In this document: in pieces, positions 12,710-30,724 of the stretch | Layout of the letters: each line of letters starts with the position of its first letter | Numbering within the stretch: the stretch's first letter is position 1 | Source: an uncultured Muribaculaceae bacterium | GTDB taxonomy: Bacteria > Bacillota_I > Bacilli_A > RF39 > UBA660 | Assembly (NCBI GenBank): GCA_964551965.1 | Contig: CAZKFB010000001.1 | Location: forward strand, 7,227 to 71,226 | Direction of reading: 5' to 3' | Length of the DNA stretch: 64,000 bases | Program-made: the position numbers and the translations under genes | The notes under the pieces: generated by a model | Databases searched by the model: none | Told to the model about the DNA's origin: nothing | Seen by the model: only the letters and a program-made list of their open reading frames with translations

Positions 12710-13939
12710 AATTCCTAGTTCATAATTATGATCTTGATTTAATATGTTTTCTAAAGCTTCTAATTCTTCATTGATTGAATTTAACCAAAATTCTTTATCT
12801 TTACTAGAACTATTAATATATTCATTAACTAAGTCATGAAGAGTACGATCTAGATTTTCAATATCTTTAATACCTTTATAGTATTCAATCTTATTAGATA
12901 AGTCTAAGTATCTATCTAATGCACTTATGCACTTATGTTTTTTAAGAGCTTTAGAAATAAATGTTTCAATAGTTGAACCAGAGAAATCTAAATTTTGCAT
13001 AATAGTTACAACATATTGTATTTCTGCTATTCTAAGTGTTTTCTTAAGTATGTGATTTTCTAAATCATAATACTTAGATATAATTTGCATTCCTTCATAA
13101 TAATCATTTTTAGATATCATTGGTTCAGATTCTACTCTAAATGATTCAGTATTTATCTTAGGAGTTTTATCTTCATTTAGTTTCTTTTTATCTATTTTCT
13201 CAAATACACTTGATAAAGATTCCGGTTTAGAATAACCTAGTAAAGAGAATGCTTTAATTATAGAATCAATATTACATTCTTCTTTTATTTCTATCTTTAA
13301 TAAATATTCATCTTCTAATAGATGATGAGCTTTCTTAATATCCTCAAATTCTATACCTTCAGCAGTATCGGTGTATATGCCATTATATATATTATTTGCA
13401 ACTATACATAAAGTAGCACTTATGATATCTTGTTTGTTCATACACATTTCTTCAAATAGAGTAAACATTTCATTAAACTTATAGAAAATACTATCAGATC
13501 TTTCCGTTAATAAATCTCTTAATATTCCGTTAGTAGATATTAAAGTTGCAAAATGTAATAAATCTCTTTTTATTAATCTATAATGAGCATGTTTTGTTAA
13601 CCATTTATTAGTTTTCTTACTTCTTTTAGATAAATCATCATAAAAAGGTTCTAATTCGTCATATTCAACTTTTAATTCATATTCATCTAAGTGTTCTGAA
13701 TATCCATTATAGTAAATAGATAATAAGTTATTTCTAATAATTATCTTCATTATTTCATTTAATAGGTTATAAACTTTAATAATAGATTCTGCTTTAAATC
13801 TATTTCTAACAGCTTCCGAATAATAATCATAAGATTCAACTATACTATCTATTTGATTATCTGTGTAGCTATCTAGTGTTTGCAATAATTCCTTTCTTGA
13901 TACTAAAAAATCTTTATTTGTTGTCATATTAATCCTCAT
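12692..13939 (-). CDS. Hypothetical cytoplasmic protein (415 aa)
   Basis: Long minus-strand ORF with no TM or signal and no recognised domain. Confidence 0.5.
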   Translation of the reverse strand: MRINMTTNKDFLVSRKELLQTLDSYTDNQIDSIVESYDYYSEAVRNRFKAESIIKVYNLLNEIMKIIIRNNLLSIYYNGYSEHLDEYELKVEYDELEPFYDDLSKRSKKTNKWLTKHAHYRLIKRDLLHFATLISTNGILRDLLTERSDSIFYKFNEMFTLFEEMCMNKQDIISATLCIVANNIYNGIYTDTAEGIEFEDIKKAHHLLEDEYLLKIEIKEECNIDSIIKAFSLLGYSKPESLSSVFEKIDKKKLNEDKTPKINTESFRVESEPMISKNDYYEGMQIISKYYDLENHILKKTLRIAEIQYVVTIMQNLDFSGSTIETFISKALKKHKCISALDRYLDLSNKIEYYKGIKDIENLDRTLHDLVNEYINSSSKDKEFWLNSINEELEALENILNQDHNYELGIKKSQE

Positions 13940-16382: not shown

Positions 16383-16399
16383 AACTAGATTTTTTTTTT
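16374..16399 (+). terminator. Intrinsic terminator
   Basis: TCTAGTT/AACTAGA hairpin spanning the stop codon, followed by a 9-T run. Confidence 0.6.
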
Positions 16400-16475
16400 A
16401 TGTAAGGTATGTTATAATTAAGATATAAGTGTAGTTGGTTATAAAATTTATTAATTTATACATAATAAATTTGAG

Positions 16476-16787
16476 GTGATTATTTTGGAAGTACTAGATC
16501 TAACCCCACTAAAAAGTGAATATAATTCACATTATCGAAATTATGATAAAAATATATTAGATTTTTATGAAATGAAGTTTCAAAATACATACACGATGGG
16601 AATCATCTTAAATTATATTATTGATACTAAAGAATATGAAGTGTATTGCTACATATACACAGATAAACAAACCGCATCTCATTTAAAAATGAAGTATTTC
16701 AAGAATAAAATATTATCCAAAATATATTTTAATTATTTAAAGTTATTTATGAATATAAGAGATTTGAGATTTTTTTTTAATAATTGA
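16476..16787 (+). CDS. Small hypothetical protein (GTG start), doubtful
   Basis: 103-aa ORF in an AT-rich spacer. GAGGTGA RBS before a GTG start. No recognisable domain. Confidence 0.2.
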   Translation: MIILEVLDLTPLKSEYNSHYRNYDKNILDFYEMKFQNTYTMGIILNYIIDTKEYEVYCYIYTDKQTASHLKMKYFKNKILSKIYFNYLKLFMNIRDLRFFFNN

Positions 16788-16854
16788 TTACAGTTTTATT
16801 ACAGTTTTGTAATAGAAATAAAAAAGATACTAAAGAGAAACTTTTCCGATATTT

Positions 16855-16884
16855 ACATTTACAAACCTTGATGTATAATGAAGT
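16855..16884 (+). promoter_or_regulatory. Candidate sigma-A type promoter upstream of the toxin-island operon
   Basis: TTTACA, 16-nt spacer, TATAAT preceded by TG. Lies ~110 nt upstream of the 16996 start. Confidence 0.35.
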
Positions 16885-16995
16885 AAAATGAATTAATTGT
16901 CTGTTGGATGATTAGTTCATTTTTTTATGCATTGGAGTGTGATTATTATGATTGTGCACAAATAATGATTAATTATACTAAAAAGGACTGATATT

Positions 16996-17340
16996 ATGAA
17001 ATTTATTAAAATAAAACCCACAACTAACTATAGTAATGAATCTATTATAAAACTATTTATTGAAGATAAATATTATCTTCATAAGACAACTATCACATTA
17101 ATACTTAACTATCCATTAGAAATAATCAATGGAATACCTGATGAATTAATAATACTAGTTCATAAAGGAGTAATTAATCAAGCATATATCAAGAGATTGG
17201 TATATAAAGAATCAACAGATAAAGAAGAAATAATAAAAGAATATTTGGAAATACCAAATATTTTTTTATTTAAAGGGGTTAATCATATTAAAACAAGCTG
17301 TAAAAATTTAGAAATAGAAATGGAGAATATATATGAATGA
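16996..17340 (+). CDS. Hypothetical protein (114 aa)
   Basis: ORF overlapping the start of the tail-collar gene by 8 nt, which suggests translational coupling. No recognised domain. Confidence 0.4.
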   Translation: MKFIKIKPTTNYSNESIIKLFIEDKYYLHKTTITLILNYPLEIINGIPDELIILVHKGVINQAYIKRLVYKESTDKEEIIKEYLEIPNIFLFKGVNHIKTSCKNLEIEMENIYE

Positions 17341-18001
17341 AAATATAAATAATTGTTTTACAGAAATTGAAGATGGAAAGATAAATGCTAAATTCAATAA
17401 AGCAACAATGAAATGCTTCGATTCAGAAAATAATAAATTTAGCATGGATTGTGATGGTAATTTAGTAGTTAATTCTATTATTACAAGAGAACAAAGTGGA
17501 AGTGGCCTAACATTTAATCAAGTGTATCCAGTAGGATCGATTTATATGAGTGTAAGTTCAATAGATCCTAGTACATTGTTTGGAGGAACTTGGGAACAAG
17601 TTAAAGGAAGATTTTTACTTGGCTGTGGAAATAATGGAGATGGAAATGATTACCTTGCTAATAATGTTGGTGGAGAAGCATCTCATCAATTAAGTATTAA
17701 TGAAGTACCAAGCCATGCTCACTATGTTAATTTGGTTACTGGAGCTAATGGAGCACATAATCATAATCTAAGAAGAGATATGGTAGGTAATGAATTTGGA
17801 ATCGGCGGAGGAAATTCTGTTGGAAACAGTTTAAACGGAACTTGGTCAAATACTAGTATATGGCCTAATTCTATTGGAGCATCTAGTGCTGGAATTCATA
17901 ATCATACTGTTTCCGGAAATACTAATGCTAATGGTGGAAGTCAATTCCATAACAATATGCCACCTTATCTTTGTGTATATATTTGGAAAAGAGTTTCTTA
18001 A
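17333..18001 (+). CDS. Phage tail collar domain protein (MdpB-like)
   Basis: Gly/Asn-rich repeats with HxH boxes (HAHYVNLVTGANGAHNHNL, HNHTVSGNTNANGG) and the terminal NMPPYL motif typical of phage tail-collar / microcystin-dependent protein family members. Confidence 0.7.
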   Translation: MNENINNCFTEIEDGKINAKFNKATMKCFDSENNKFSMDCDGNLVVNSIITREQSGSGLTFNQVYPVGSIYMSVSSIDPSTLFGGTWEQVKGRFLLGCGNNGDGNDYLANNVGGEASHQLSINEVPSHAHYVNLVTGANGAHNHNLRRDMVGNEFGIGGGNSVGNSLNGTWSNTSIWPNSIGASSAGIHNHTVSGNTNANGGSQFHNNMPPYLCVYIWKRVS

Positions 18002-18020
18002 AGTTCTATAGGAGTGTACA

Positions 18021-21000
18021 ATGAAAGAATTAATTAATTTAAGAAAACAAAGAGAAAAACACTTTCTAAATAAAGATGGAACAATAACTGCATGTATGTA
18101 TGATCATGATATCCATTATTTAGAAAATGGAGAATATAAAGAAATTGATAATACTCTAATAGAAGAGAATGATTATATTACAAATAAAAGCAATGATTTT
18201 AAAATAAGATTTAATAATGATAAATATTTAGTCAATATTAATCTAGGTAATAGCTATTTAAATATAAGTTTAAAAAATGCTAATGAAACAAAATCAAAGA
18301 TAATTAATAATGAAGTAATCTATGAAAATGTTCTACCTAATATAGATTTTCATTATTTAATTAATGGTTCAACATTAAAAGAAAATATCTATTTAAATAA
18401 TGAAATAAAAAATAGTATAATTTTTAATATTGATACTAATTTAAAATTAGAAATAAGAGATAATAAGGTACTTGCATTAGATAAAGATAAGGTTATATAT
18501 ACATTTAATCCATTATTTATGATTGATGCAAATGAAGTAATTAATCGCAATTGTAAATATAAATTAGAAAAAAATAATGATTTTTATGAATTAGAGATTA
18601 TTCTTGATCAAGACTATTTAATGAATGCCAATTATCCAGTAATTATTGATCCAACAATTACAAGTGATAATTTAGAAAATGTATTTGATGTAACTATTAA
18701 TTCAAATGCTGCAGATAGTAATTTTGATTTTTCAAAACATTTATATATTGGAAATGATGGAACAGGAATAAAGCGTGCATTATTAAAATTTGATTTACCT
18801 TTTATTTCTACAGGTTGCAACATTATAAAAGCAACAGTATATTTAAAAAATTCAGTTGCATTTATCCATGAAAATTCTGAGAGAATTGCCGTCCACGAAA
18901 TTACAGAAAGTTGGGATGAATCAACTGCGACATGGAATAACATGAGTAGTAAATTCGATACTAAAATGGAAACTTATCTTGAAACACCTCAAATGTTATA
19001 CCTAGATACAGCATTTGATTTTGAAATAACCAATATTGTAAAAAAATGGTATACCAATAATGTTAATAACGGAATCATGCTAAAATTGTTTGATGAAAGC
19101 CCTAATACAAGTCATGCAGACTATAGCTTTTACTCTAAAACATATGATGGAGTAAATGGAACGGCAGATCGACCATATCTAGTTATTGAATATAGAATGC
19201 AAAATGGTCTATTAGATTATATGACATATGAAAGTATACCCCTTTCGTATGGCGCATCATACATTAATAATAATAATGGTAATTTGATAACTCAAATATC
19301 TTTATCGGAAATATTAGATCAAACAAGTTTATATGGTTTACAAATAACATATAATACAGATAGTATGTTATTAAACCAAAATAATGGTTTCGGATTAGGA
19401 TTCAATATCAGTTATAATGACTATGTAATAAAGACTCCTAATCAATTTATGGAAACGGAATATTTATATAAACTATCTGATGGAACTAGTCATTATTTCT
19501 ATCAATTTAGTAAAGGAATATTTTGTGATGAAGATGGCATAAATCTAACGTTAGAAATTGTTAATGAGGAAAATAATAATTATAAAATTACTGATAAAGA
19601 GGGAAATAAATTTATTTTTACCAATAGTTATTTATCAAAAATAGAATATGTCGATGAAACATTTGTTAATATTGTTAGAAATAGTTCTAATTATATTACA
19701 AGTATTAAAGATAGTAAGAATAATGAAGTTACTATTAACTATAATACAAATCAAGTTTTATTAACATGTAATAATAAAACAATTACTGTTAATTTAACAA
19801 ATAATAAGATAAATAATATTTCATTTAAAAAGGGAAATATTAATTTTAATTATAATGACAGTTCACTTATATCAAAAATTATTGATATTAATGGTTTAGG
19901 TGCAGGATTTGATTATTATGAGGTATCTCCTTATCGTGTAAAGAAATTAACTGAATATGGATTAAATAATGCTACCGGTAAATTCAAAACTTTTACATAT
20001 GAATTTAATTCGACAACAGTAACTGATCATAAGAATAATAAAATTAGATATACTTTCAATAATATGGGCAATACAATAAGCACTGTTATTTTAGGAAGTG
20101 ATGATTCATTAAAGAATTCTTATGGATTTTCAGAAAAATATATAGACGAAGTAAAGTCGGCTGCTACTAATAAAGTATTATCAAGTTCATTACCTATTAA
20201 GTTTACAAAAAATTTAATTAAGAATGGAAACTTTGAGACTACAGATAATAATTTCTTATTCCAGTATAAATCTAATGAAGATAGTTATAATGGCAATTAT
20301 TCAGCAAAAATTAACGCATATGGTAATGGACAAATAGCAAATGTTTTTGAGAGTACAAAAAATTATACTTTTGGTGCGTTTTATAAAAATGAACATCCAG
20401 TCTATATTGAAATATATTCTAAATTAAACACTGATGTAGAAACATTAAAAGAATACATTATTATGCCTAATGATGAATTTACTTATCAAGAAAAAACATT
20501 TGAGACACCTAGTCAGTTTGATTGTATTGGTTTTAACTTCACTGTTTTGTATGATGGAATTGCTTATATGGATGATGTTGTAATAAGCGAAGGAGAGTCA
20601 GCAGGATTATATAATTTAATCGATAACCCAGACTTTGAAGATAATACTGATGGTTGGCTAATTAGTGGAAGTGTTGACGGATCTGAAGAAGAAATAAGTA
20701 ATCCATATCAAATAATTACTTTGTCATCAAATGAAAAAGCTATTCAGTTAAATAGTATTGTCAATGGTGGAGTATCAATGGTTAAAACTTTACCTATTTC
20801 CGGAAAAATTGGAGATGCTTATACCTTTTCTTTTTGGTATAAGAATGAAGGAGTGTTTAATGTTGATTCGGGATTAGTTGGAAATATGGCAGCAATCATA
20901 TTTAACGATCCTGATGATGATTTAGGAAGTGGAACGCAAAATGCATTATTAAATTATCATGCTGATAATTGGCAATATTATACAGATACTTGTGTAGCAG

Positions 21001-23981
21001 AGAATAATTATGATTCAATCACAATTGTAATATTAAGTATGTATGAAGCAAATCATATTTCTTTAACTAATTTTTCACTTATTAAAGATTTAGGTTCTTA
21101 TTCATTTAAATATGATGATAATGGAAATTTAATATCATTGAGTGATGTATTAAGCAATAAAAGTGAATTTAAATATGATAGTAATAATCAATTAATTAGT
21201 TCATTTAATGCTAAGGGTAAAAACTTTAAATATGAATATGATAATACTAAAGCAGATAGGCTTCTTAAAGGAATTAGTCCTACCGGAATATCTAATGAAA
21301 TTAAGTATGATGAATTTGGAAATCCTAAAGCCACAATTATTAACAATGTTAATCCAAAAGGGAATGATATAGATGGCAACTTCTATATTCGCTCTAAGGG
21401 TACTGATAAATATTTAACTCCTGATTTACAAACGGGAATAATAAGTTTAAAAAATGATACATGTAGTCATTATTCATACTCAATTGAAAGCCATAATGAG
21501 ATTAATGATCAAACAGAAACAAAAGTATATAATTTAAAATCAACTATATTACCAGATAAAGTTTTAGTAAAAATTGATAATACTATAAAACTAGTTAAAA
21601 CTGGGCCTTGTACAAACTTTGAATTTATTAATAGAGATAATGGATCAAAATTAATAAAGGTATATAATGAAGATTTATACTTAAAGGTAGATAATGAAGG
21701 ATTAGTATTTGCAGCTCTTGAAGAAAATTCAAACTATGAATTTTACTTTGAAGATACTGACACTAATGAATTTATTATGAATACTTCTGAATATACAGAA
21801 GATGGAAAATATATTACTAAAATGATTGATACTTTAGGAAATACAACTACTTATGATATTGATCATAATACAAATCTTGTAAATTCAATAACTAATGCTA
21901 AAGGGATTGAAACAACATATACATATGATAATAAAGATCGATTAACAAATGTAACTGTTGATAATAAACAAGTAGAATATGTTTATGAAAATGATTTAAT
22001 AAAAAATATTAAAACTGGTAATAAGAATTATCAATTTGAATATGATAATTTCCTAAATCCAACTAAGGTAAAAATCAACAATCAGACATTAGTAACTAAT
22101 GAATATGAAAGTAATAATGGAAAATTAAAAAGTGTTACTTATGGCAATAATGAAATTATTAATTATGAATATGATAAATTTGAAAGATTAGCTAAAAGTA
22201 ATAATTATGAATATCAATATAATAATTCAGGATTATTAAAATCAGTTAAAGATAATACTTCTTATATAGAAGATTACAATTATGACTTTGCTAATCGATT
22301 AAAAACATATATGCTTAATAATAAATTTAAAATAAATTATAACTATGATGTCAATAGTAATATCAATCATAAAGATTATTATTATGGAAATTATAAAAAT
22401 ACATTAGATTATATATTTAATGATGATGATTCAGTTATAAAAGTAAACTTTGATAACAATACAGTTAATTATACTTATGATTATTTAGGAAGATTGATAA
22501 CAAGGAATATTAATGATAATCTACCAGTAGAATATACATATAAGAAAAATGGAGATAGAACATCATTAATAATAGATACTATAAAAATAGGTAATGATAT
22601 TTATAAGTATTCATATGATAATCTATATAATATAACATCTATTAAAAAGAATAATGAGATAATCAATGAATATCTATATGATAATAGAAGTGAATTATTA
22701 GCAGATATCAATTATGAATTAAATAGAAAGTATGTTTATGCATATGATAACGAAGGAAACATCATAACTAAAAAAGAATATAACTTAGAAACTAACGAAT
22801 TAATTGATGAAGATACATTTACTTATGGAAATACTTCATGGGAAGATCAGTTAACTAAATTTAATAATGATGTAATAACTTATGATGAAATAGGAAATCC
22901 AATAACTATTGGAAGTAAAGAATTAACATGGAGTAAAGGAAGACAGTTAACAAAATATAAAGATGGAAATACAGAAATAAATTATAAGTATAATAAAGAT
23001 GGAATAAGAATATCAAAAGAGATAGGGAATAATAAAACAAATTATTATTTAGAAGGAAGAAAAATAATATTTGAAGATAAAAATAATAATGTGATATACT
23101 ATATATATGATGATAGTGGTTACTTGTTAGGATTCAAATATAACAATGAAATATACTATTATCAAAAGAACTATCAAAATGATATAACAGGAATCTACGA
23201 TAGTAATTATAACTTAGTAGTAAGCTATAAATATGATGGATGGGGAAATATAATAAAAGTAGAAGATAATACAAGTAATAATATAGGAAGTATAAATCCA
23301 TTCAGATATAGAAGTTACTATTATGATGAAGAGACAAGTTTATATTATTTAAATAGTAGATACTATAATCCAAATTGGTGTAGATTTATTAATATAGACG
23401 AGTATATAAAAATTTCTTCACTAGGAGGAAATTTATATTCATATACAGAAAATAATCCTATTACAAATATAGATGAAACAGGCAACATCTTTAAAAAGGT
23501 AGCTAAATTCTTTGTTGACAGCTATACTAAAACAAAAAAAATAGTGAAGAATAGTAGCAAAAAGATTTCTGATAAATTTAAGAAATTTAAAAAACAGTTG
23601 AAAGAAGGATATGAATATCTTAAAAAATCATTTGTGCTTGAAACGGGAAGAGGAAACGGTTTTTCACTAGAAGATAATACATCTTTTGCAAAAATTGGAA
23701 TAAACGATTCAACAAATATTGTATCAAAGTATAAACAAGGGAAAAAAGAAGAATACTTAGAGCAAACAAGAGGGATTTCATTAGGAGTTGTTGGCATCTC
23801 ACAAAACCTTGTGGATTTAGAAACAGAAGGTTTAAACCATTATCCAACAACTTATTCAATTGGGATAATTGAATTTTCTGATACAGATGGAACAATTTTT
23901 ATTGGGCATACAACTAGCTTACATTTTTATGTTGGTGGATATGTAAAAATAGGATTTGAAATAAAAATGACAGGAAATTGA
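18021..23981 (+). CDS. RHS/YD-repeat polymorphic toxin (1986 aa), no signal peptide, variable C-terminal toxin domain
   Basis: Many YD-type repeats (YxYDxxGN..., YEYD, YKYD). RHS repeat-associated core end is ...YKYDGWGNII...NPFRYRSYYYDEETSLYYLNSRYYNPNWCRFINIDEY, followed by the junction motif LYSYTENNPITNIDETGN and then a ~170-aa lysine-rich C-terminal domain. The N-terminal ~400 aa resemble the beta-sandwich (DNRLRE-like) module seen in Firmicutes RHS proteins (..RIAVHEITESWDESTATWNNM..). The hydrophilic N-terminus has no Sec signal. Confidence 0.9.
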   Translation: MKELINLRKQREKHFLNKDGTITACMYDHDIHYLENGEYKEIDNTLIEENDYITNKSNDFKIRFNNDKYLVNINLGNSYLNISLKNANETKSKIINNEVIYENVLPNIDFHYLINGSTLKENIYLNNEIKNSIIFNIDTNLKLEIRDNKVLALDKDKVIYTFNPLFMIDANEVINRNCKYKLEKNNDFYELEIILDQDYLMNANYPVIIDPTITSDNLENVFDVTINSNAADSNFDFSKHLYIGNDGTGIKRALLKFDLPFISTGCNIIKATVYLKNSVAFIHENSERIAVHEITESWDESTATWNNMSSKFDTKMETYLETPQMLYLDTAFDFEITNIVKKWYTNNVNNGIMLKLFDESPNTSHADYSFYSKTYDGVNGTADRPYLVIEYRMQNGLLDYMTYESIPLSYGASYINNNNGNLITQISLSEILDQTSLYGLQITYNTDSMLLNQNNGFGLGFNISYNDYVIKTPNQFMETEYLYKLSDGTSHYFYQFSKGIFCDEDGINLTLEIVNEENNNYKITDKEGNKFIFTNSYLSKIEYVDETFVNIVRNSSNYITSIKDSKNNEVTINYNTNQVLLTCNNKTITVNLTNNKINNISFKKGNINFNYNDSSLISKIIDINGLGAGFDYYEVSPYRVKKLTEYGLNNATGKFKTFTYEFNSTTVTDHKNNKIRYTFNNMGNTISTVILGSDDSLKNSYGFSEKYIDEVKSAATNKVLSSSLPIKFTKNLIKNGNFETTDNNFLFQYKSNEDSYNGNYSAKINAYGNGQIANVFESTKNYTFGAFYKNEHPVYIEIYSKLNTDVETLKEYIIMPNDEFTYQEKTFETPSQFDCIGFNFTVLYDGIAYMDDVVISEGESAGLYNLIDNPDFEDNTDGWLISGSVDGSEEEISNPYQIITLSSNEKAIQLNSIVNGGVSMVKTLPISGKIGDAYTFSFWYKNEGVFNVDSGLVGNMAAIIFNDPDDDLGSGTQNALLNYHADNWQYYTDTCVAENNYDSITIVILSMYEANHISLTNFSLIKDLGSYSFKYDDNGNLISLSDVLSNKSEFKYDSNNQLISSFNAKGKNFKYEYDNTKADRLLKGISPTGISNEIKYDEFGNPKATIINNVNPKGNDIDGNFYIRSKGTDKYLTPDLQTGIISLKNDTCSHYSYSIESHNEINDQTETKVYNLKSTILPDKVLVKIDNTIKLVKTGPCTNFEFINRDNGSKLIKVYNEDLYLKVDNEGLVFAALEENSNYEFYFEDTDTNEFIMNTSEYTEDGKYITKMIDTLGNTTTYDIDHNTNLVNSITNAKGIETTYTYDNKDRLTNVTVDNKQVEYVYENDLIKNIKTGNKNYQFEYDNFLNPTKVKINNQTLVTNEYESNNGKLKSVTYGNNEIINYEYDKFERLAKSNNYEYQYNNSGLLKSVKDNTSYIEDYNYDFANRLKTYMLNNKFKINYNYDVNSNINHKDYYYGNYKNTLDYIFNDDDSVIKVNFDNNTVNYTYDYLGRLITRNINDNLPVEYTYKKNGDRTSLIIDTIKIGNDIYKYSYDNLYNITSIKKNNEIINEYLYDNRSELLADINYELNRKYVYAYDNEGNIITKKEYNLETNELIDEDTFTYGNTSWEDQLTKFNNDVITYDEIGNPITIGSKELTWSKGRQLTKYKDGNTEINYKYNKDGIRISKEIGNNKTNYYLEGRKIIFEDKNNNVIYYIYDDSGYLLGFKYNNEIYYYQKNYQNDITGIYDSNYNLVVSYKYDGWGNIIKVEDNTSNNIGSINPFRYRSYYYDEETSLYYLNSRYYNPNWCRFINIDEYIKISSLGGNLYSYTENNPITNIDETGNIFKKVAKFFVDSYTKTKKIVKNSSKKISDKFKKFKKQLKEGYEYLKKSFVLETGRGNGFSLEDNTSFAKIGINDSTNIVSKYKQGKKEEYLEQTRGISLGVVGISQNLVDLETEGLNHYPTTYSIGIIEFSDTDGTIFIGHTTSLHFYVGGYVKIGFEIKMTGN
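23079..23400 (+). repeat. Repeat copy A: 3' end of the RHS core, in the full-length gene
   Basis: aataataatgtgatatactatatatatgatgatagtggttacttgttagg...tggtgtagatttattaat recurs near-identically at 25754 (from its start) and at 24302 (from its middle). Confidence 0.85.
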
Positions 23982-23997
23982 AAAAAGGTGAAGAATT

Positions 23998-24294
23998 ATG
24001 GCAAAAAAGCAGTGTAGAATAGGAAGTATAATTTTTGCAAAAGAATACTTAACGGAGCAAAACGATTTTTTTAATAGAAAAATATACTATAATGAGATTA
24101 AAAGCTATTATATAAAGGCAACCATACATTCTAAATATATGACAAAAGATTTATGCATTATAACTGAAAAAAACAAAAAAAAGAAAATGTCCTATACAGT
24201 TGGACAATGTGGGATTTTTTTCTTTGATCCAGAAGAAAATATAATTAATATGATGAAAATGGTTTGCCCCCATGCTGAATATATAAAAAAATAA
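23998..24294 (+). CDS. Putative cognate immunity protein for the RHS C-terminal toxin
   Basis: Small ORF 17 nt downstream of the toxin stop, with GGTGAAG RBS. Position is typical for rhsI-type immunity genes. No homology asserted. Confidence 0.45.
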   Translation: MAKKQCRIGSIIFAKEYLTEQNDFFNRKIYYNEIKSYYIKATIHSKYMTKDLCIITEKNKKKKMSYTVGQCGIFFFDPEENIINMMKMVCPHAEYIKK

Positions 24295-24301
24295 GTATTA
24301 T

Positions 24302-24481
24302 CAGTAGTAAGCTATAAATATGATGGATGGGGAAATATATTAGAAGTAGAAGATAATACAACAAATAATATAGGAAGTATAAATCCATTCAGATATCGAA
24401 GTTACTATTATGACGAAGAGACTAGTTTATATTATTTAAATAGTAGATATTATAATCCAAAATGGTGTAGATTTATTAATG
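24302..24481 (+). repeat. Repeat copy B: RHS core-end homology in orphan cassette 1
   Basis: ~180 bp at >90% identity to 23214..23395 of the main gene. Homology ends exactly where the toxin domains diverge. Confidence 0.85.
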
Positions 24482-25104
24482 CTGATGGAATAGTAGGAGC
24501 AAACCAAGACATAACGAGTTTAAACTTGTATGCATATGTAAGTAATAATCCAATTAGTAATACGGATGATGATGGCAATTCATTATTTAAAGTGATAAGA
24601 AAAGCAGTTAAAATTGCCGCAAACATATCATTTAAAGGAGTTAAGGATAAAGTTGTTAACACAGCCAAAAGATATATTAAAAATAAGATAGATGGATATT
24701 ATCAAATTGGAAAAGCATATGTGGACTCTAAAATAAACGAAATGAATTTTAGAGCAAATGCATTTTATGCTGAAGTTGGTGTAAGTGACCCCACAGTAAG
24801 CAAAGCTATAAGTAAAAGTAATAATACGTTGGGGATATATACTAATAAAACATACAAAATTCACCAAAAACAGATTTCTCGTTCAGCGGATACTGTATTA
24901 AGTATAAGTCCAATTTCCATTTCAAAATCTATAGACGATGAATCGACTGTTAGTAAAAACATATCATATTCGTTTAAATATGTAGAATTGTCATCTGAGG
25001 GATTTTTCTTTGGATATTCTTTCAGTGAGCATCACGGCACCGTTGGAATAGATGCAAAATTAGGTTTATATGTCAAATGGGATTGGTTTATAAAAGGCAT
25101 TTAA
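24302..25104 (+). CDS. Orphan RHS C-terminal cassette: displaced core-end fragment fused in frame to an alternative toxin domain, with no upstream start codon
   Basis: Frame opens right after the immunity gene stop and encodes VVSYKYDGWGNILEVEDNTTNNIGSINPFRYRSYYYDEETSLYYLNSRYYNPKWCRFINADG...LNLYAYVSNNPISNTDDDGN. This duplicates residues ~1730-1815 of the main gene and is followed by a different ~175-aa C-terminal domain. The ORF track reports only the TTG-initiated 24526..25104 part. Confidence 0.65.
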
Positions 25105-25132
25105 AATGATATAGGAAGATAGGTAATGGTGT

Positions 25133-25660
25133 ATGAAAGATATAGTTAAATATAATATAATATTTTTTAATCTTTTTCCAATTATAATAGAATCAATAAT
25201 CATAATTGTGGGAAGTATAGTTTTTCAATCACCGATTTTTTTACTATCTTTTATATTTATATTTATTGAGTGTAAAAACCTAAGAAAAAATTTAGACAAT
25301 TTAAGAAAAGTTCAAAATAAATTTGATTGTGTTGGAGAAGTACTTTATCAAAACAGTGGGTGTTTTCTATATGACAGTTGTATTATAAACATTAAATTTA
25401 ATATTTTTACTGTAGATTATTCTGATATAGATGAAATATATTTTGAAAAAGAATATTATGGAAATGTAAGAGAGCCAAATATATGTATAATAACTAAGGA
25501 TAGAAAAAAATATAAAATTAAATTTCCAAGATTAACAGTACCACAACCAAATGATGAAGAACTTAATCTTATAATTGGCATTATAAAAAAGAATAATCCT
25601 AAGGTGAAATTGACTGGTAACACTATAAAAAAATATATCGAACCAGATTTATTTAATTAG
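25133..25660 (+). CDS. Putative immunity protein for orphan toxin 1 (membrane protein)
   Basis: Follows the orphan toxin by 28 nt. N-terminal hydrophobic region of two TMs (IIFFNLFPIIIESIIIIVGSIVFQSPIFLLSFIFIFI). Confidence 0.4.
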   Translation: MKDIVKYNIIFFNLFPIIIESIIIIVGSIVFQSPIFLLSFIFIFIECKNLRKNLDNLRKVQNKFDCVGEVLYQNSGCFLYDSCIINIKFNIFTVDYSDIDEIYFEKEYYGNVREPNICIITKDRKKYKIKFPRLTVPQPNDEELNLIIGIIKKNNPKVKLTGNTIKKYIEPDLFN

Positions 25661-25753
25661 TTTAAATTGTATAGTTTAATTATAGTTGAAAAGAATATAT
25701 GCAAAGAATATTTGTGGTAAAATAGTGAGTAATTTTTATTATTTTAAATCGAA

Positions 25754-26000
25754 AATAATAATGTGATATACTATATATATGATGATAGTGGTTACTTGTT
25801 AGGATTCAAATATAACAATGAAATGTACTATTATCAAAAGAACTATCAAAATGATATAACAGGAATCTATGATAGTAATTACAACTTAGTAGTAAGCTAT
25901 AAATATGATGGATGGGGAAATATATTATCAGTAGAAAATAATACAATAAATAGTATATGAAGTATAAATCAATATAGATATCTAGTTTACTACTACGATG
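25754..26000 (+). pseudogene. Orphan cassette 2: degenerate RHS core-end fragment with premature stops and the toxin domain lost
   Basis: Starts with the same aataataatgtgatatactatatatatgatg... as main-gene position 23079. Translates as ...YIYDDSGYLLGFKYNNEMYYYQKNYQNDITGIYDSNYNLVVSYKYDGWGNILSVENNTINSI*, then decays (stop codons within SINQYRYLVYYYDGDNIFVIYT*). Confidence 0.65.
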
Positions 26001-26094
26001 GAGATAATATCTTCGTTATTTATACTTAGCATATCATTTAATCATTCTATACAAAATAAATATATATTGATATCTAAATCCTCGGAGGAAGTTT

Positions 26095-26730
26095 ATGAAA
26101 AAAACAAAGATTACAATTACAAAAGAAAACATACCCATAATATCAGCAAAAGCAAATCTTTTGATAACAAAACTTTTTAAAATTAATTTTTTTGTTTGTC
26201 TATTAGCGGGATATTTCTTTGTGAATGATTTAGTTACAAATACTGTAAAAGAAAGCTCCAACAAATACAATGTGCAAACGGATAGTTATTTGATAGTTTC
26301 TGCAATTTTATTTGTTTTATTAGTAATTTTGATGAGATATTTACATTTATATTTTTCATATAAAAAAATGCATAACAAAAAATACAATGATGAAAATAAT
26401 TATACAATATCATATAAGAATGAGTATTTAATCGGGGAAAATATAAATACAAAAATCAAAGTAAATTATGATAAGATATTTTTTATTGGAAAAGTTGACT
26501 TGTTATATTTTATGGCCTATTTAGATGACAATGAATATTTTATATTGCCGATAGGAAATGTTGGAATAGATGGTTTTACAATTAATGAATTATTAGTTAA
26601 TTGTCACAATTTAAAATTTAAAAAAATAGTATCTTATAATTCGAAAAAAAAGTTGTGCATATTACTTTTTGTAATATTATTTCTGATGTTTTTAGTTAAT
26701 TTTACTAGATTCCTATATTGTATAATTTAA
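26095..26730 (+). CDS. Membrane protein, possible orphan immunity gene
   Basis: 211 aa with several TMs. GGAGGAAG RBS. Located directly after the degenerate orphan cassette. Confidence 0.35.
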   Translation: MKKTKITITKENIPIISAKANLLITKLFKINFFVCLLAGYFFVNDLVTNTVKESSNKYNVQTDSYLIVSAILFVLLVILMRYLHLYFSYKKMHNKKYNDENNYTISYKNEYLIGENINTKIKVNYDKIFFIGKVDLLYFMAYLDDNEYFILPIGNVGIDGFTINELLVNCHNLKFKKIVSYNSKKKLCILLFVILFLMFLVNFTRFLYCII

Positions 26731-26788
26731 ACAAATGCTTTTTCAAGTTGCAATATTGTCATCTGACGGATTATTATTTGGATAATCG

Positions 26789-26887
26789 TTCAGCTTGCAT
26801 TATGGTGGACCTGGAGGCAATATAAAGTTGGATATTAAATTTTTAGATGGACTAGATTTTTTTAAATTTAAATTCATAACCGTGTGA
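26789..26887 (+). pseudogene. Remnant of a toxin-domain 3' end (third displaced cassette tail)
   Basis: Short frame SFSLHYGGPGGNIKLDIKFLDGLDFFKFKFITV* resembles the C-terminal end of orphan toxin 1 (YSFSEHHGTVGIDAKLGLYVKWDWFIKGI*). It has no start and no upstream domain. Confidence 0.35.
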
Positions 26888-26946
26888 GTAGTAAAATCTA
26901 AAAGATATATATGAAAATGATCGAATATGAGTTATAATTGAAATGA

Positions 26947-27741
26947 TTGAAGTTGGTGATACTAGTGGATAATAAATTTACATATCTTATTGGTTGTATC
27001 TTCTTATTTGGTGTCTTTATCTATTTGATTTTTTGTGTTATAAAAGAGTTAAAATTGTATAAAAGTTTTGATTTATCAAAAAAAATAGATTTGAAAAAGT
27101 ACAATAAGATACAGGATGTCAAAACAAGAACAATTGCATATATTATTTTATCAATTTGTATAGGCTTGCTATGTGTATTGGCGCTCTTTAATTTACCTAA
27201 AATTATAACTGGATTTTATGATGATAATTTTATTATTCAAGAATGTGAGATAACAGACTATCTATATAATGGAGTAGATAATCCTGACATGCTTAGTTGC
27301 AAGAATGATAATTTGGAAATAAATGAAATAGAGTTCTATAGCAGAGCTGAATCCATAGATGAAGATAGTATCGGGAATCATATTTGTATTAAAATAAAGC
27401 CTAATAGAGGAAACGCTGAGATTATAAAAATGAGTAATGAACATAATCTTTCTTGTGATGAGTTTTATTGGCAAAATAAAAATGAAAAGAATGAAGTTAA
27501 TTATAATTACTCAATAGTTAAATGTGAAATTAGTAAATATGAAAAAAATAGAATTAACTGCCGTATTAATAATAAGATATATTTAAAAGAAATAGATTTA
27601 TTAAATAAAGAGACAATACAAAAGCATAATAAAATATGCTTAAAGTATTATTGGAATACTAATTCGGGAGAAATTCTATATTCAGATGATTCTAATAAGA
27701 AGTTTAGTTGTGATGATTATATAAAACAAGAAGAAAAATAA
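26947..27741 (+). CDS. Hypothetical protein with N-terminal TM, Cys-rich, possible orphan immunity or accessory gene
   Basis: 264-aa ORF with an N-terminal TM and a second TM near residue 60. No recognised domain. Confidence 0.35.
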   Translation: MKLVILVDNKFTYLIGCIFLFGVFIYLIFCVIKELKLYKSFDLSKKIDLKKYNKIQDVKTRTIAYIILSICIGLLCVLALFNLPKIITGFYDDNFIIQECEITDYLYNGVDNPDMLSCKNDNLEINEIEFYSRAESIDEDSIGNHICIKIKPNRGNAEIIKMSNEHNLSCDEFYWQNKNEKNEVNYNYSIVKCEISKYEKNRINCRINNKIYLKEIDLLNKETIQKHNKICLKYYWNTNSGEILYSDDSNKKFSCDDYIKQEEK

Positions 27742-27768
27742 GATTATAAAGATTAATAGGAGTATTAA

Positions 27769-28347
27769 ATGGAAAAGATAGTAATAAGAGTATTAGGAGT
27801 TTTGTTTATGCTAGTTGCTTTAAAATTAATTAGAGATGTGGCCAGTTCTGATAATTATAATAAAACTCAATCTATAAAAGAAAAAATCCTTAAAACAAAA
27901 AATATTAAAGGGTATACTTGTTCCAATCGAGATGGGTATAAACTAATATTCTTTGGTTTAACAATTGTTTTTCTTATTATGACTGTTATAAGTCTGATTG
28001 TATTTATATATGAAATAATAAAAAAATATGATGTCAGCGAGACAAATAATATTCTTGGTATAACAAGTGTTATGCTTTGCTTATTCCTTGCCAGTCTTTT
28101 ATTATTTATTTATACTTCAAAGTGCAATCTCTATTTTAATGATGAAGAAATAATTAGATATAGGATATTAAGGAAAAAACAAGTCATGAAATATAAAGAT
28201 ATTGTGAGAACAATGGTAACCCCATTTTCTAGAATAATATTATATTCAACAGATGACAAATTGATATTTGGACTAGATACATCACAAAGCAATAAATTTA
28301 TTGATTTATTGAAAAAAAAGGGAATAGACATTAGTTATAAAATGTAA
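27769..28347 (+). CDS. Membrane protein (4 predicted TMs), unknown function
   Basis: GGAG RBS. Hydrophobic segments at about residues 5-20, 60-80, 95-115 and 150-165. Confidence 0.4.
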   Translation: MEKIVIRVLGVLFMLVALKLIRDVASSDNYNKTQSIKEKILKTKNIKGYTCSNRDGYKLIFFGLTIVFLIMTVISLIVFIYEIIKKYDVSETNNILGITSVMLCLFLASLLLFIYTSKCNLYFNDEEIIRYRILRKKQVMKYKDIVRTMVTPFSRIILYSTDDKLIFGLDTSQSNKFIDLLKKKGIDISYKM

Positions 28348-28418
28348 AAACTTTTTATTGTATTTTAAAAAACTATTATTCAGAAAAAAATTTATTTGAG
28401 CGGTATTTAGCAACAATT

Positions 28419-28443
28419 AAGAGCAATTTTATTGCTCTTTTTT
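28419..28443 (+). terminator. Intrinsic terminator immediately upstream of the hydrolase/holin genes
   Basis: AAGAGCAAT-ttt-ATTGCTCTT hairpin followed by a T-run. Confidence 0.6.
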
Positions 28444-28462
28444 AATGAAAGGAAGTGAGTTA

Positions 28463-29086
28463 ATGGCATATATATTAAGAAAAATAATTAATAGTCCATT
28501 AAAGGATATAACTAGTTCTAAGATTAATTCTGATTTTGGACCACGAACTTTTTATAATAAGATAACTAAAAGATATGAAACAGGACACCATAATGGTATT
28601 GATATTACAGGAAGCAATGTTGTCGTTTCTGCTTTTGATGGTATTGTTACTAGTACAAGAAATAATGTTGATGGTTATACGGAAAAGTATAAGAGTGGTA
28701 ATTACGTAACTATAAATCACGGTAATAATCTATATTCAACCTATTGCCATCTAAAAAAGAATTCTATTTGTGTAAAAAAAGGACAATATGTAGTAGCTGG
28801 TACTAAACTAGGTATAATGGGCAAGACTGGTCATGCAACCGGAATACACTTACATTTTGGTATTAAAAAGGATGGCAAATTTGTTGATCCTAAACCATAT
28901 CTTTTAAACAATGTTGCAAATATTAAAAATAATATTGAAGTTATCTATATTGTAAAAAAGGGAGATAATTTATCAAAGATAGCTAAGAAATATCATACTA
29001 CTTGGAAGAGAATATATGAAAAGAATAAGGAATTAATAGGAGACAATCCTAATTTAATATATCCGGGATGGGAATTAAAGATTTAA
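28463..29086 (+). CDS. M23 family peptidoglycan endopeptidase with C-terminal LysM domain
   Basis: M23 metal-binding motifs HHNGIDI ... GNYVTINHGNNLYSTYCHL ... GKTGHATGIHLHFG. The C-terminal LysM is YIVKKGDNLSKIAKKYHTTWKRIYEKNKELIGDNPNLIYPGWELKI. Start taken at 28463 (GGAAGTGAG RBS) rather than the track's 28445. No signal peptide. Confidence 0.8.
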   Translation: MAYILRKIINSPLKDITSSKINSDFGPRTFYNKITKRYETGHHNGIDITGSNVVVSAFDGIVTSTRNNVDGYTEKYKSGNYVTINHGNNLYSTYCHLKKNSICVKKGQYVVAGTKLGIMGKTGHATGIHLHFGIKKDGKFVDPKPYLLNNVANIKNNIEVIYIVKKGDNLSKIAKKYHTTWKRIYEKNKELIGDNPNLIYPGWELKI

Positions 29087-29457
29087 TTAATATTAATGTG
29101 ATAAGTAGTACGTTTATTTTTTTAATAGGTGGCTTTGATAATTTATTTATAACTTTATTAATATTCATTGCTCTTGATTATATAACAGGTGTAATTAAAG
29201 CAATTTATCAAAAAAAGTTAAATAGCAAATTAGGATTAAAAGGATTTTTAAAAAAATTAGGTTATATATTAATAGTAATAATAGGAAGTTTATTTGATTC
29301 ACTTATAGGAGATAAAACAATGGCAATAAGAACATTATGTATATATTTCTTTATTTCTAATGAAGCCATTTCAATACTTGAAAATTGGGCGTTTATGGGT
29401 CTTCCACTTCCCAAGAAAATATTTCAAGTATTTGAATCTTTAAAAGAAGATAAATAA
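29068..29457 (+). CDS. Holin of the TcdE/UtxA family (toxin-secretion / phage-lysis holin)
   Basis: Three-TM small protein. LDYITGVIKAIYQKKLNSKLGLKGFLKKLGYILIVIIG and the C-terminal ILENWAFMGLPLPKKIF align by eye with my recollection of the C. difficile TcdE sequence. The start overlaps the hydrolase gene end by 19 nt. Confidence 0.75.
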   Translation: MGIKDLININVISSTFIFLIGGFDNLFITLLIFIALDYITGVIKAIYQKKLNSKLGLKGFLKKLGYILIVIIGSLFDSLIGDKTMAIRTLCIYFFISNEAISILENWAFMGLPLPKKIFQVFESLKEDK

Positions 29458-29462
29458 AATTA

Positions 29463-29491
29463 TTGACTATATAAGGGAAAAAGGGTAATAT
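29463..29491 (+). promoter_or_regulatory. Candidate sigma-A promoter for the regulator gene
   Basis: TTGACT, 17-nt spacer, TAATAT. Sits ~30 nt before the AAGAGGTGA RBS of the 29521 gene. Confidence 0.45.
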
Positions 29492-29520
29492 ATACAATCA
29501 AGTGATTAAGAGGTGATTAT

Positions 29521-30036
29521 ATGATTAATACAATCTCGATTAAAGACTTTGTTGAATTACCAGATATTATGTTAGACAAAGCAAGAAAAGTTAAATATAT
29601 TCAACTATTAAGTGAAAATACAGTTAATGAATATTATTATTCTAATCTAAGAAAAGATATAGAAAAAGTTTTTAATAAATTTAAAGATTCTAAATATTTA
29701 ATATGCTATGATAATAACTATAGTTTAAAATCTAATGCCAGTTCACTAGAATTAAATAGGAACACTAATAAAATCAATGATAAGGTTGGAACATATATAG
29801 AAAGTAAAATGGATTTAAGTATATGGTCTAAGGATTTATATAATATTTTATATGCCTTATCAGAAGAATTAACAATAGAAGAATCTATGTATTTAACACT
29901 TACATTCTTTGAGGAAAAGACTGAAGAAGATATAAGTGAAATATTGGATGTTTCTAAAAAAGGCCTATATAAAATAAAAAAGAGTTGTTTAGTAAAACTA
30001 AGATTAGAGTTTTCTAAATATGATTTGATGAATTAG
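29521..30036 (+). CDS. Putative transcription factor with sigma-70 region-4-like C-terminal HTH (TcdR/UviA-type small sigma or ArpU-family phage late regulator)
   Basis: C-terminal LTFFEEKTEEDISEILDVSKKGLYKIKKSCLVKLR matches the region 4.2 pattern (F....T..EI.EIL..S...V.K.R..AL.KL) shared by TcdR-like sigma factors and ArpU regulators. It is 171 aa, the size of both families. Confidence 0.5.
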   Translation: MINTISIKDFVELPDIMLDKARKVKYIQLLSENTVNEYYYSNLRKDIEKVFNKFKDSKYLICYDNNYSLKSNASSLELNRNTNKINDKVGTYIESKMDLSIWSKDLYNILYALSEELTIEESMYLTLTFFEEKTEEDISEILDVSKKGLYKIKKSCLVKLRLEFSKYDLMN

Positions 30037-30067
30037 AGAAGTGTGAGAAATCACACTTCTTTTTTTA
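30037..30067 (+). terminator. Strong intrinsic terminator at the right edge of the toxin island
   Basis: 10-bp perfect stem AGAAGTGTGA / TCACACTTCT with a GAAA loop and a 7-T run. Confidence 0.85.
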
Positions 30068-30125
30068 TTTGTATTGACATGAATAATATATCTTGTTGTA
30101 TTATTAACATGGAAGGTGATATTTA

Positions 30126-30452
30126 ATGGAAAAACAAACTGCAGGAAGAGATAACTTAGGAAGTCTTGCTCCTAAATTTGCTGAACTTAATGATGATGTA
30201 TTATTTGGGGAAATTTGGAGTAGAGAAGATAAATTATCCTTGAGAGATAGAAGTATGATTACAATATCAGCTTTAATGGCTCAAGGATTGTACCCTCAAG
30301 TAAAATCTCATTTAGTATTAGGTAAGAAACATGGTTTAACAAAAGAAGAAGTAGTAGAGATGGTAACCCAACTAGCTTTCTATACAGGATGGGCTAAAGC
30401 TTGGAGTGTATTTCCTTTAGTAGAAGAAATTTATAAAGATGAAGAAGATTGA
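30126..30452 (+). CDS. Carboxymuconolactone decarboxylase (CMD/AhpD-like) family protein
   Basis: 108 aa with the CMD-family pattern (...LRDRSMITISALMAQG...HLVLGKKHGLTKEEVVEMVTQLAFYTGWAKAWSVF). Local GC is clearly higher than the flanks. Confidence 0.75.
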   Translation: MEKQTAGRDNLGSLAPKFAELNDDVLFGEIWSREDKLSLRDRSMITISALMAQGLYPQVKSHLVLGKKHGLTKEEVVEMVTQLAFYTGWAKAWSVFPLVEEIYKDEED

Positions 30453-30724
30453 ATAAGAAGGCGTATGATGGCTTGAAGTTCCAAAATGGAACTTCAACAT
30501 TAAGTAATCATAGTGGAGAAAGAAAATGCCATTTGTATTCACAGAGCATGGAGTAGCAAAGCTCGCAATAATAGAAGAAAGTAAAATTATTTGGTCCCAA
30601 GTTGGGACCGAAAAAATAAAATCTTTAGGAAAATATTTTTATAAGATTAATACAATAGATTAATGAAAAATTTAAAAAAGTATGCTATATTTATAATGTA
30701 AAATATAGGAGGTTTTTTGGTGGT

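Follow-up and report, generated by a model that had tools for sequence, protein, structure and literature searches.

Does the DNA behind the rhs gene of an uncultured gut bacterium preserve the toxin ends that this gene carried before? The question is raised by a stretch of 64,000 nucleotides (the window; contig CAZKFB010000001.1, positions 7,227–71,226, assembly GCA_964551965.1; GTDB lineage Bacillota_I, Bacilli_A, RF39, UBA660), in which an rhs gene of 1,986 codons (18021–23981, + strand; from the list of open reading frames (ORFs) with Pfam and NCBIfam) is followed by partial copies of its own 3′ part and by a series of small ORFs. An earlier note on this DNA, made by a model from the letters alone, had seen there displaced 'orphan' toxin/immunity cassettes at different stages of decay. 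Our analysis points the same way: the region 23.0–28.4 kb is very probably the variable 3′ end of an RHS polymorphic-toxin gene together with an archive of earlier 3′ ends. The window is chromosomal (it holds rpoA, type IV pilus genes, uvrB and other housekeeping genes), has a G+C content of 26.9%, and the genomes closest to it were assembled from metagenomes and belong to uncultured gut 'Bacilli' of mouse, water deer and yak.

The main gene encodes a DNRLRE domain at amino acids 223–390 (NCBIfam, E 1e-27), YD repeats (Pfam RHS_repeat, E 1e-19; YD_repeat, TIGR01643, E 2e-16), an Rhs-associated core at amino acids 1738–1821 (TIGR03696, E 9e-17) and a C-terminal putative toxin domain, CT-A. It is the 3′ end of this core, here called the core tail, that recurs downstream.

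Three copies of the core tail

Self-BLASTN of 18000–28500, a repeat search and a three-way MAFFT alignment all agree on three core-tail copies on the + strand, with similarity far beyond chance, so the self-alignment bears out what had been noticed in the letters. Copy A (23080–23393; BLASTN and alignment) lies inside the main gene, reads ...YIYDDSGYLLGF...YKYDGWGN...RYYNPNWCRFIN and holds the homology common to copies B (24303–24480) and C (25751–26004). Positions 23080–23332 of A match 25752–26004 of C at 91.7% over 253 nt, ungapped (E 1e-101), the identity of A and C (25751–26004) ranging from 91.7 to 93.9%. A (23216–23393) and B (24303–24480) are 94.9% identical over 178 nt (E 3e-77), close to the ∼93% of the earlier note, and B and C share 86% over 117 nt.

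The copies differ in what follows them. Copy B runs in frame into a toxin domain of its own and forms orphan 1, described below. Copy C, or orphan 2 (25751–26029, + strand), is decayed as had been claimed: it carries a single in-frame TGA (25958–25960), its core homology fades at ∼26004–26010, beyond which core and toxin have been deleted, and a TAG (26027–26029) closes the frame with no toxin domain after it. Three independent core stubs, truncated and toxin-deleted, namely copy C at 26004 and those of two other strains (L037, 1201–1383; L039, 2–73; L numbers denote related loci and contigs), all end within tail residues 79–88, around ...SINPFRYRSYYYDEE.

Further downstream, flush after the stop of ORF 26095–26730, BLASTN and protein alignment identify a relic of 147 bp (26741–26887, + strand) that corresponds to the last ∼48 codons of a toxin of the CT-B family, that is, the family of the orphan-1 toxin. 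It aligns to CT-B residues 131–163 with a score of 69 (25 ± 4.4 for shuffles), shows 87% identity over 39 nt in self-BLASTN (24987–25025 versus 26755–26793, E 3e-7) and is interrupted by an internal TAA (26783–26785). The remnant had been noticed before, but as ∼100 bp at 26789–26887; its existence holds and its extent does not.

A start-less frame with a second putative toxin domain

Orphan 1 (24295–25104, + strand) is a frame open for 269 codons, for which base composition gives a probability of 3e-12 of meeting no stop, with 27 and 41 stops in the other two frames. It consists of copy B, a linker and junction (...NNPISNTDDDGN) reaching to 24579, and CT-B (24580–25104, 174 amino acids), and its amino acids 9–94 match the shell-closing TIGR03696 core (E 1e-19), as the main gene does. 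The frame opens three codons ahead of the core homology; across related loci most orphan frames open 0–6 codons ahead of it, and one as many as 19. No ATG, GTG or TTG occurs between 24295 and 24526; the TTG at 24526 is the first, and no Shine-Dalgarno sequence precedes it. A promoter scan stays at background (137 sites found, 134 expected). The earlier reading of copy B as joined in frame to a different toxin without a start codon is thus confirmed, and signals for an independent gene with its own promoter and start were not found.

CT-A (23487–23981, + strand, 164 amino acids) belongs to a rare family. An exhaustive search of 1.84 billion representative proteins gave 6 real relatives, one of them a full-length RHS protein (P0003, 2,022 amino acids) and the others orphan-sized, including ORFs of 285, 299 and 177 amino acids. 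A word-indexed search with CT-A gave no match; the rhs protein was probably hidden there, in a cluster whose representative has another C-terminus. CT-B has only two relatives among 5.8 billion proteins, both in the same orphan context. The two domains are not significantly similar to each other in BLASTP, and the only link between them, a distant one, runs through P0002 (29% identity to CT-A, E 2e-6). In the PDB, Foldseek returned no match better than E 0.1 and a CT-A family profile search returned nothing relevant. In AlphaFold2 (AF2) models both domains show two helices followed by long beta-hairpins; from this pattern and the membrane-bound immunity proteins one might picture a pore-forming or beta-barrel toxin, which is only a guess. 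A Pfam match of orphan 1 to SUa-2TM (E 0.0016) is below cutoff and we do not rely on it.

The boundary between orphan 1 and the gene before it, imm1, has a peculiarity of its own. That gene ends in an A7 run followed by TAA, and orphan 1 continues in the same frame past this single stop (24277–24303); the same is seen in L002. Read-through from one to the other was considered and rejected: the shared frame is most likely chance, with a prior of 1 in 3, and a fused immunity-toxin protein would be senseless.

Displacement and exchange in related loci

Scanning species-representative genomes with the last 421 core residues gave 16 loci, which we mapped by tblastn. In these loci a single conserved core is joined to many unrelated C-terminal domains, each ahead of a small ORF with its own Shine-Dalgarno sequence; an orphan has the recognised domain Ntox44, a main gene has Tox-WTIP, and GIY-YIG is matched weakly. 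Eight loci (L003, L004, L007–L011 and L013) have one to three additional start-less core tails downstream of the main gene, truncated at points that vary from tail residue 3 to 49.

A case of displacement is offered by two of the related loci. L019, the locus of P0003, is a minimal island of an rhs gene with a CT-A-type end, an immunity gene and an M23 peptidase gene, with no orphan. L009 is collinear with it on both sides (L009 1–781 = L019 14704–15484, 94%; L009 4798–9812 = L019 15246–20261, 98%), but ∼4 kb with a new C-terminus have been inserted, and the old C-terminal domain now stands after a 239-bp duplicated core tail. The exact right-hand join is hidden by a run of 100 N. We read L019 and L009 as a direct before/after pair for displacement of the C-terminus. 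The families themselves are found in both places: CT-A in the main gene of P0003/L019 and in orphan position in L009 and L003, and a further toxin, CT-X, in the main gene of L030 and its like and in orphan position in L008. Together with the anatomy of the array, this upholds the view of displaced cassettes at different stages of decay.

A second comparison concerns the use of the repeats as crossover sites. Over 24012–24370, which covers imm1 and the first ∼70 nt of copy B, contig L002 from a different sample matches the window at 100%; past 24370 identity drops to 90% and then to 50–70% through CT-B and the start of imm2. Since identity breaks inside copy B, a crossover in the orphan core stub exchanged the downstream module. 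The L002 counterpart of orphan 1 is 55% identical and intact at 279 codons. This breakpoint and the 239-bp duplicated tail of L009 agree with the earlier proposal that the repeats are a substrate for homologous recombination that swaps toxin domains. Each of the core tails A, B and C has its closest relatives in the other two, and the orphan core tail of L008 is more similar to the window copies (90%) than to the main gene of L008 itself (86%). Midway through the variable region of L008 lies a fragment of 34 codons (12912–13013) resembling the N-terminus of the M23 protein (44% identity, E 2e-5), perhaps the ragged right-hand edge of DNA inserted from a donor.

Candidate immunity genes and a co-circulating toxin

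Five small ORFs on the + strand follow the main toxin. All except 26947 have a Shine-Dalgarno sequence, and four of the five (25133, 26095, 26947 and 27769) contain one to three strongly hydrophobic segments, while ORF 23998 contains none. The latter, imm1 (23998–24294), with its own Shine-Dalgarno sequence, encodes a soluble candidate immunity protein of 98 amino acids for CT-A, and its homologues come after CT-A-family toxins in L003, L009 and L019. The candidate for CT-B is imm2 (25133–25660), predicted to be a membrane-anchored protein of 175 amino acids (hydrophobic segment 7–48) with a Shine-Dalgarno sequence; in L002 a diverged imm2 start comes after the diverged CT-B, and an exact-sequence look-up of imm2 gave no record. 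The orphan candidate imm3 (26095–26730; 211 amino acids, about three hydrophobic segments) has a strong Shine-Dalgarno sequence, GGAGG, and no homologue in the related loci mapped. Last comes a two-gene orphan set (26947–28347) of imm4 (26947–27741, although the real start may be the GTG at 26965) and imm5 (27769–28347).

The partner of this last set is suggested by other strains. Contigs L030–L036 and L038, obtained by looking up close relatives of the window's holin (described below), have flanks 95–98% identical to the window in nucleotide sequence and an rhs allele only 34–37% identical in protein, which ends in the different, hydrophobic toxin CT-X. It is directly followed by homologues of imm4 and imm5 with 92–94% identity and then by the M23 gene, and the triad of CT-X, imm4 and imm5 occurs twice in L008; imm4 and imm5 are therefore assigned as a two-gene immunity set for CT-X. 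The window strain, which does not encode CT-X, thus appears to have kept a candidate CT-X immunity pair, and this pair should protect it against the toxin of co-circulating strains of the same species. The earlier note had counted 25133, 26095, 26947 and possibly 27769 as often membrane-associated orphan immunity genes: the hydrophobicity stands, whereas 26947 and 27769 are not the immunity genes of the 26741–26887 relic, which is of the CT-B family. Deeply divergent rhs alleles evidently coexist at one locus within the species. The L030-type strains lack imm1. Strains L037 and L039 are further variants with truncated core stubs and deleted toxins.

Proposed history of the array and its alternatives

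We propose that toxin/immunity modules enter by crossover in the core tail (...YKYDGWGN...RYYNPxWCRFIN), the incoming module becoming the expressed C-terminus of the 1,986-codon gene. The previous module would be pushed downstream, keeping its core-tail stub with no start codon or ribosome-binding site, while immunity genes, retaining ribosome-binding sites of their own, would stay expressed; they are probably co-transcribed with rhs, because no + strand terminator occurs before 28419, and transcription would then run across the array. Toxin stubs, once silent, would decay to differing degrees, from the intact orphan 1, via orphan 2 with its nonsense codon and lost toxin, to a third module of 147 bp and a fourth of two immunity genes only. 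The repeated core tails would stay crossover sites able to exchange or re-deploy modules, orphan 1 presumably among them. The C-terminal domains are predicted to be toxic and the imm products to neutralise them.

Several observations weigh against this history or parts of it. Right-hand joins do not lie at homologous sequence, and copy B starts 8 nt after the imm1 stop. Neither protein searches nor two scans of JGI metagenomes found a full-length rhs gene or protein bearing CT-B, so re-deployment of orphan 1 is unproven, and the AF2 models of the toxin domains are of low confidence (pLDDT 52.8 for CT-A and 40.0 for CT-B). Moreover, between the window and L030 the whole block 18202–26953 (L030 1834–7889) is replaced: divergence starts ∼180 nt into rhs and homology resumes exactly at 26954, where imm4 begins. 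It is thus possible that the array came in as one unit, ready-made rather than stepwise in this lineage. An allelic replacement via conserved flanks (the rhs 5′ end on the left, imm4 on the right), bringing in the rhs body with its orphans, is a serious possibility, although we lean against it. It would account for 95–98% identity up to 18202 and from 26954 around bodies so distant in protein, and for the mutual closeness of tails A, B and C, as expected of a shared donor history. Yet it merely shifts stepwise displacement into the donor, no donor with the same array was found, and the L019/L009 pair shows insertion of a single module in this very family. Rather less likely is that the orphan toxin stubs are dead and never re-used, the array being selected only as an immunity bank against neighbours' toxins. 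Toxins are indeed lost beside intact immunity genes at copy C/imm3, at the 26741–26887 relic and at imm4/imm5, the same pattern is seen in L037 and L039, and imm4/imm5 match a toxin of co-circulating strains; the failure to find CT-B on a full-length rhs gene fits as well. Relics alone, however, would hardly keep a frame of 269 codons open in the window and a 55%-identical one in L002, and they agree poorly with the crossover in copy B, which exchanged the CT-B/imm2 module between strains, and with the movement of the CT-A and CT-X families between main and orphan positions.

That orphan 1 is an independently expressed small toxin, started at TTG 24526 or another internal codon and forming a toxin-antitoxin-like pair with imm2, we consider quite improbable. 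A protein collection does hold a 192-amino-acid product from this TTG (NCBI source), and a report on Salmonella describes internal orphan expression (PMC7043789); the lack of start signals and the background-level promoter scan speak against it, as does a frame that begins just ahead of the core homology, which is typical of truncation. An assembly artefact, in which copies of one rhs 3′ end were mis-joined or collapsed, is hardly credible. Short-read assemblies do break at such repeats, and the Logan contigs start at 23216 or later (to 23436), most of them ending near 24332. But the copies differ at 5–8% of positions and run on into different unique sequence, at least 13 independent contigs span A, CT-A, imm1 and B at 99.7–99.9%, and L001 (99.8%) covers the end of core tail A, CT-A, imm1, copy B, CT-B and part of imm2. 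As independent assemblies reproduce the junctions at this identity, the structure is real. One of the contigs is present in at least 20 samples; the A/imm1/B junction, recurring unchanged in at least 13 contigs, is therefore stable in the population, and the earlier picture of an array caught mid-turnover has to be given up. We retain displacement with exchange through the core tails as the most probable reading of the array.

The junction and its linker

Cleavage of RhsA occurs four residues after the second of its catalytic Asp residues, D1324 and D1346, at the motif PxxxxDPxGL (PMC8765631), and the positions of motif and catalytic Asp in our proteins are inferred from these. Among 29 distinct junctions, retrieved with a search pattern that itself required the P-x4-D-x-x-G and RF[IL]N-x-D residues, the former together with the upstream RF[IL]N-x-D occurs, as the pattern demands, in 29/29. 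Pro follows the Asp in 8/29 and the canonical Leu is found in 0/29, Asn being the commonest residue at its position (9/29). The junction thus appears to be looser here, P-x4-D-x-x-G-x, and by analogy autoproteolytic release would take place after D-x-x-G-N. That the motif departs from DPxGL had been noted before and stands; the long consensus offered in its place was over-fitted to two copies and does not survive the 29 junctions.

The two Asp residues are 25–28 positions apart, compared with 22 in RhsA. All CT-A modules have a spacing of 25 and most other modules one of 27, so that the linker co-varies with the toxin family. In the main gene this module-specific linker (23394–23486, + strand; Asp-Asp spacing 25) extends from the first predicted catalytic Asp (NID) to the predicted cleavage junction NNPITNIDETGN. 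At the nucleotide level, the conservation shared by A and B ends with 'RFIN' (23393/24480), ∼31 codons before the predicted cleavage site is reached; the unit that is swapped thus takes in the linker that joins the two predicted catalytic residues. Many relatives, among them the main-gene C-termini of L003 (11297–11860), L004 (11111–11635), L005, L006, L008 and L010, have a transmembrane-like hydrophobic stretch and a Lys-rich segment right after D-x-x-G, which may be a translocation element.

A possible lysis-type release cassette beside the array

Upstream of rhs, on the same + strand, are two small ORFs (16476–16787 and 16996–17340) and a gene for a tail-fibre-like Gp10_C protein (17333–18001; Pfam Gp10_C, E 1.5e-23; PHROGs tail protein, E 5e-26), together occupying 16476–18001. 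Wherever the flank upstream of a full-length rhs relative was examined, a Gp10_C copy lay directly before the gene. Downstream, the rhs/immunity unit ends at an intrinsic-terminator-like hairpin with a T-run (28419–28439, + strand), the sole + strand site of this kind between 16300 and 30035, just before the ribosome-binding site of a gene for an M23 peptidase with LysM (28445–29086, probable start 28463; Peptidase_M23, E 7e-23; no signal peptide). Hairpins with a T-run but different stem sequences stand at the same position in L005, L008, L009/L019, L030, L037 and L039; since the stems differ at a conserved position, the pairs are compensatory. Overlapping the M23 gene is a holin gene (29068–29457; TIGR01593, toxin-secretion/phage-lysis family, E 3e-27), and after it comes a small sigma-70 region-4 protein (29521–30036; Pfam, NCBIfam and PHROGs), both on the + strand.

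A conserved island recurs in related loci: two small ORFs, one or two Gp10_C genes, an rhs gene of ∼2,000 codons, the variable region, M23 with LysM, holin and the small sigma-like protein. At least eight loci keep the cassette linked to rhs. The full M23-holin-sigma cassette stands next to rhs in L003, L004, L005, L008, L009, L019 and L030–L036/L038; L007 has only the M23 gene and L010 only the holin, both upstream of rhs, the linkage being kept despite the changed order. An identification of the sigma protein as TcdR/UviA was dropped: tblastn against plasmids gave no match, and the PDB gave only a weak match to SigF (E 0.7). Rfam gave no match over 16000–30600. The rhs core had no match in viral contigs, which leaves a phage-borne element without support.

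How would such a toxin leave the cell? The N-terminus of the RHS protein is hydrophilic: a signal peptide is absent, as is any hydrophobic segment within the first 100 amino acids. Nine full-length relatives likewise have neither a signal peptide nor, over their first 65 residues, a hydrophobic segment. Pfam and NCBIfam find no LysM or other wall-binding domain on it, and no PAAR/VgrG-binding, LXG or WXG domains either on it or in the ∼50 larger window ORFs scanned. A signal-less RHS protein, a signal-less hydrolase and a holin suggest, on the gene content, release mediated by holin and peptidase.

We found no description in the literature of such an RHS island in Gram-positive bacteria. Tentatively, and with somewhat less than even confidence, we suggest that the array is part of an undescribed Gram-positive RHS bacteriocin island, colicin- or type 10 secretion system (T10SS)-like, in gut Bacilli: a signal-less toxin, a Gp10_C partner that may serve targeting, and release by M23 and holin encoded behind a conserved terminator beside a sigma factor of their own. 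Its alleles, ∼35% identical, would coexist with one-sided immunity; one allele type being immune to the toxin of the other and not the reverse, one-way killing is predicted.

Two observations lie apart from the island. The segment 30100–30511, with a gene of the carboxymuconolactone-decarboxylase family (30126–30452), is absent from L030 (at 11028) and partly present in L031, L033, L037 and L039. An ORF of 1,061 amino acids (54391–57576) and the preceding one of 310 (53457–54389) have no Pfam match at E <= 1e-5.

Known systems and significance

Displacement of rhs C-termini and orphan rhs-CT/rhsI modules are established in enterobacteria (PMC2935791, PMC3150448, PMC3967940), and recombination that activates an orphan was shown experimentally in Salmonella (PMC3967940). 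The likeness is close. There, too, a full-length gene is followed on the same strand by 5′-truncated fragments that have a core 3′ stub, no initiation signals and different toxin domains, each followed by an immunity gene; the shared core is the crossover site, and orphans decay while immunity genes persist. Here, however, the host is an uncultured member of the low-GC gut Bacilli, no type VI secretion system (T6SS), PAAR or VgrG was found in the scans, the junction is of the looser form without the Leu and mostly without the Pro, nucleotide conservation ends already at 'RFIN', and activation of an orphan, unlike in Salmonella, is inferred from comparative evidence only.

Among Gram-positive bacteria, the WapA-CT1/WapA-CT2 orphan of Streptococcus suis (PMC12704120) also belongs to an RHS toxin with a DNRLRE domain, and this domain is the only WapA-type feature present in the window RHS protein. 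WapA carries LysM repeats as well as a Sec signal peptide and requires a SecF-like protein and a sortase (PMC12704120), whereas the protein described here has neither signal peptide nor LysM and has Gp10_C, M23, holin and sigma genes as neighbours. Arrays of cdiA-CT/cdiI orphans (PMC3150448) similarly place start-less toxin/immunity modules downstream, each after a conserved pre-toxin stretch, but on a CdiA filament instead of an RHS shell, with a different junction motif and export route.

As regards the cassette, a large signal-less toxin near a holin, a peptidoglycan hydrolase and a small sigma-type regulator recalls the Tc toxin/T10SS of Yersinia entomophaga (PMC10847048) and the C. difficile pathogenicity locus (PaLoc) with TcdE, TcdL and TcdR (PMC3369941, PMC6200909). 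Tc toxins themselves include an RHS shell, the TcC subunit. Unlike in those systems, holin-dependent release is here a proposal made from the gene content, the hydrolase is an intact M23+LysM endopeptidase, and the cargo is neither a Tc complex nor a glucosylating toxin but a single-chain RHS protein of antibacterial type with immunity genes. Colicin operons have the order toxin, immunity, terminator, lysis gene. The island resembles them in this order of toxin, immunity gene(s), intrinsic terminator and release genes, although the proteins differ; with the release genes behind the terminator, their expression would depend on read-through.

Orphan rhs modules are already textbook knowledge in Enterobacteria and were recently noted in Streptococcus suis, and our results mainly extend the principle to uncultured low-GC gut Bacilli. 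Their value lies in clean natural evidence: a before/after pair of loci, a crossover mapped in an orphan stub, and orphan immunity matched to a co-circulating toxin. Antagonism at strain level in the gut is thereby made directly testable. Perhaps more important than the array is the island around it, which points to a lysis-type exit for the RHS toxins of Gram-positive bacteria; until now this way of release has been documented for Tc toxins and for the large toxins of clostridia.

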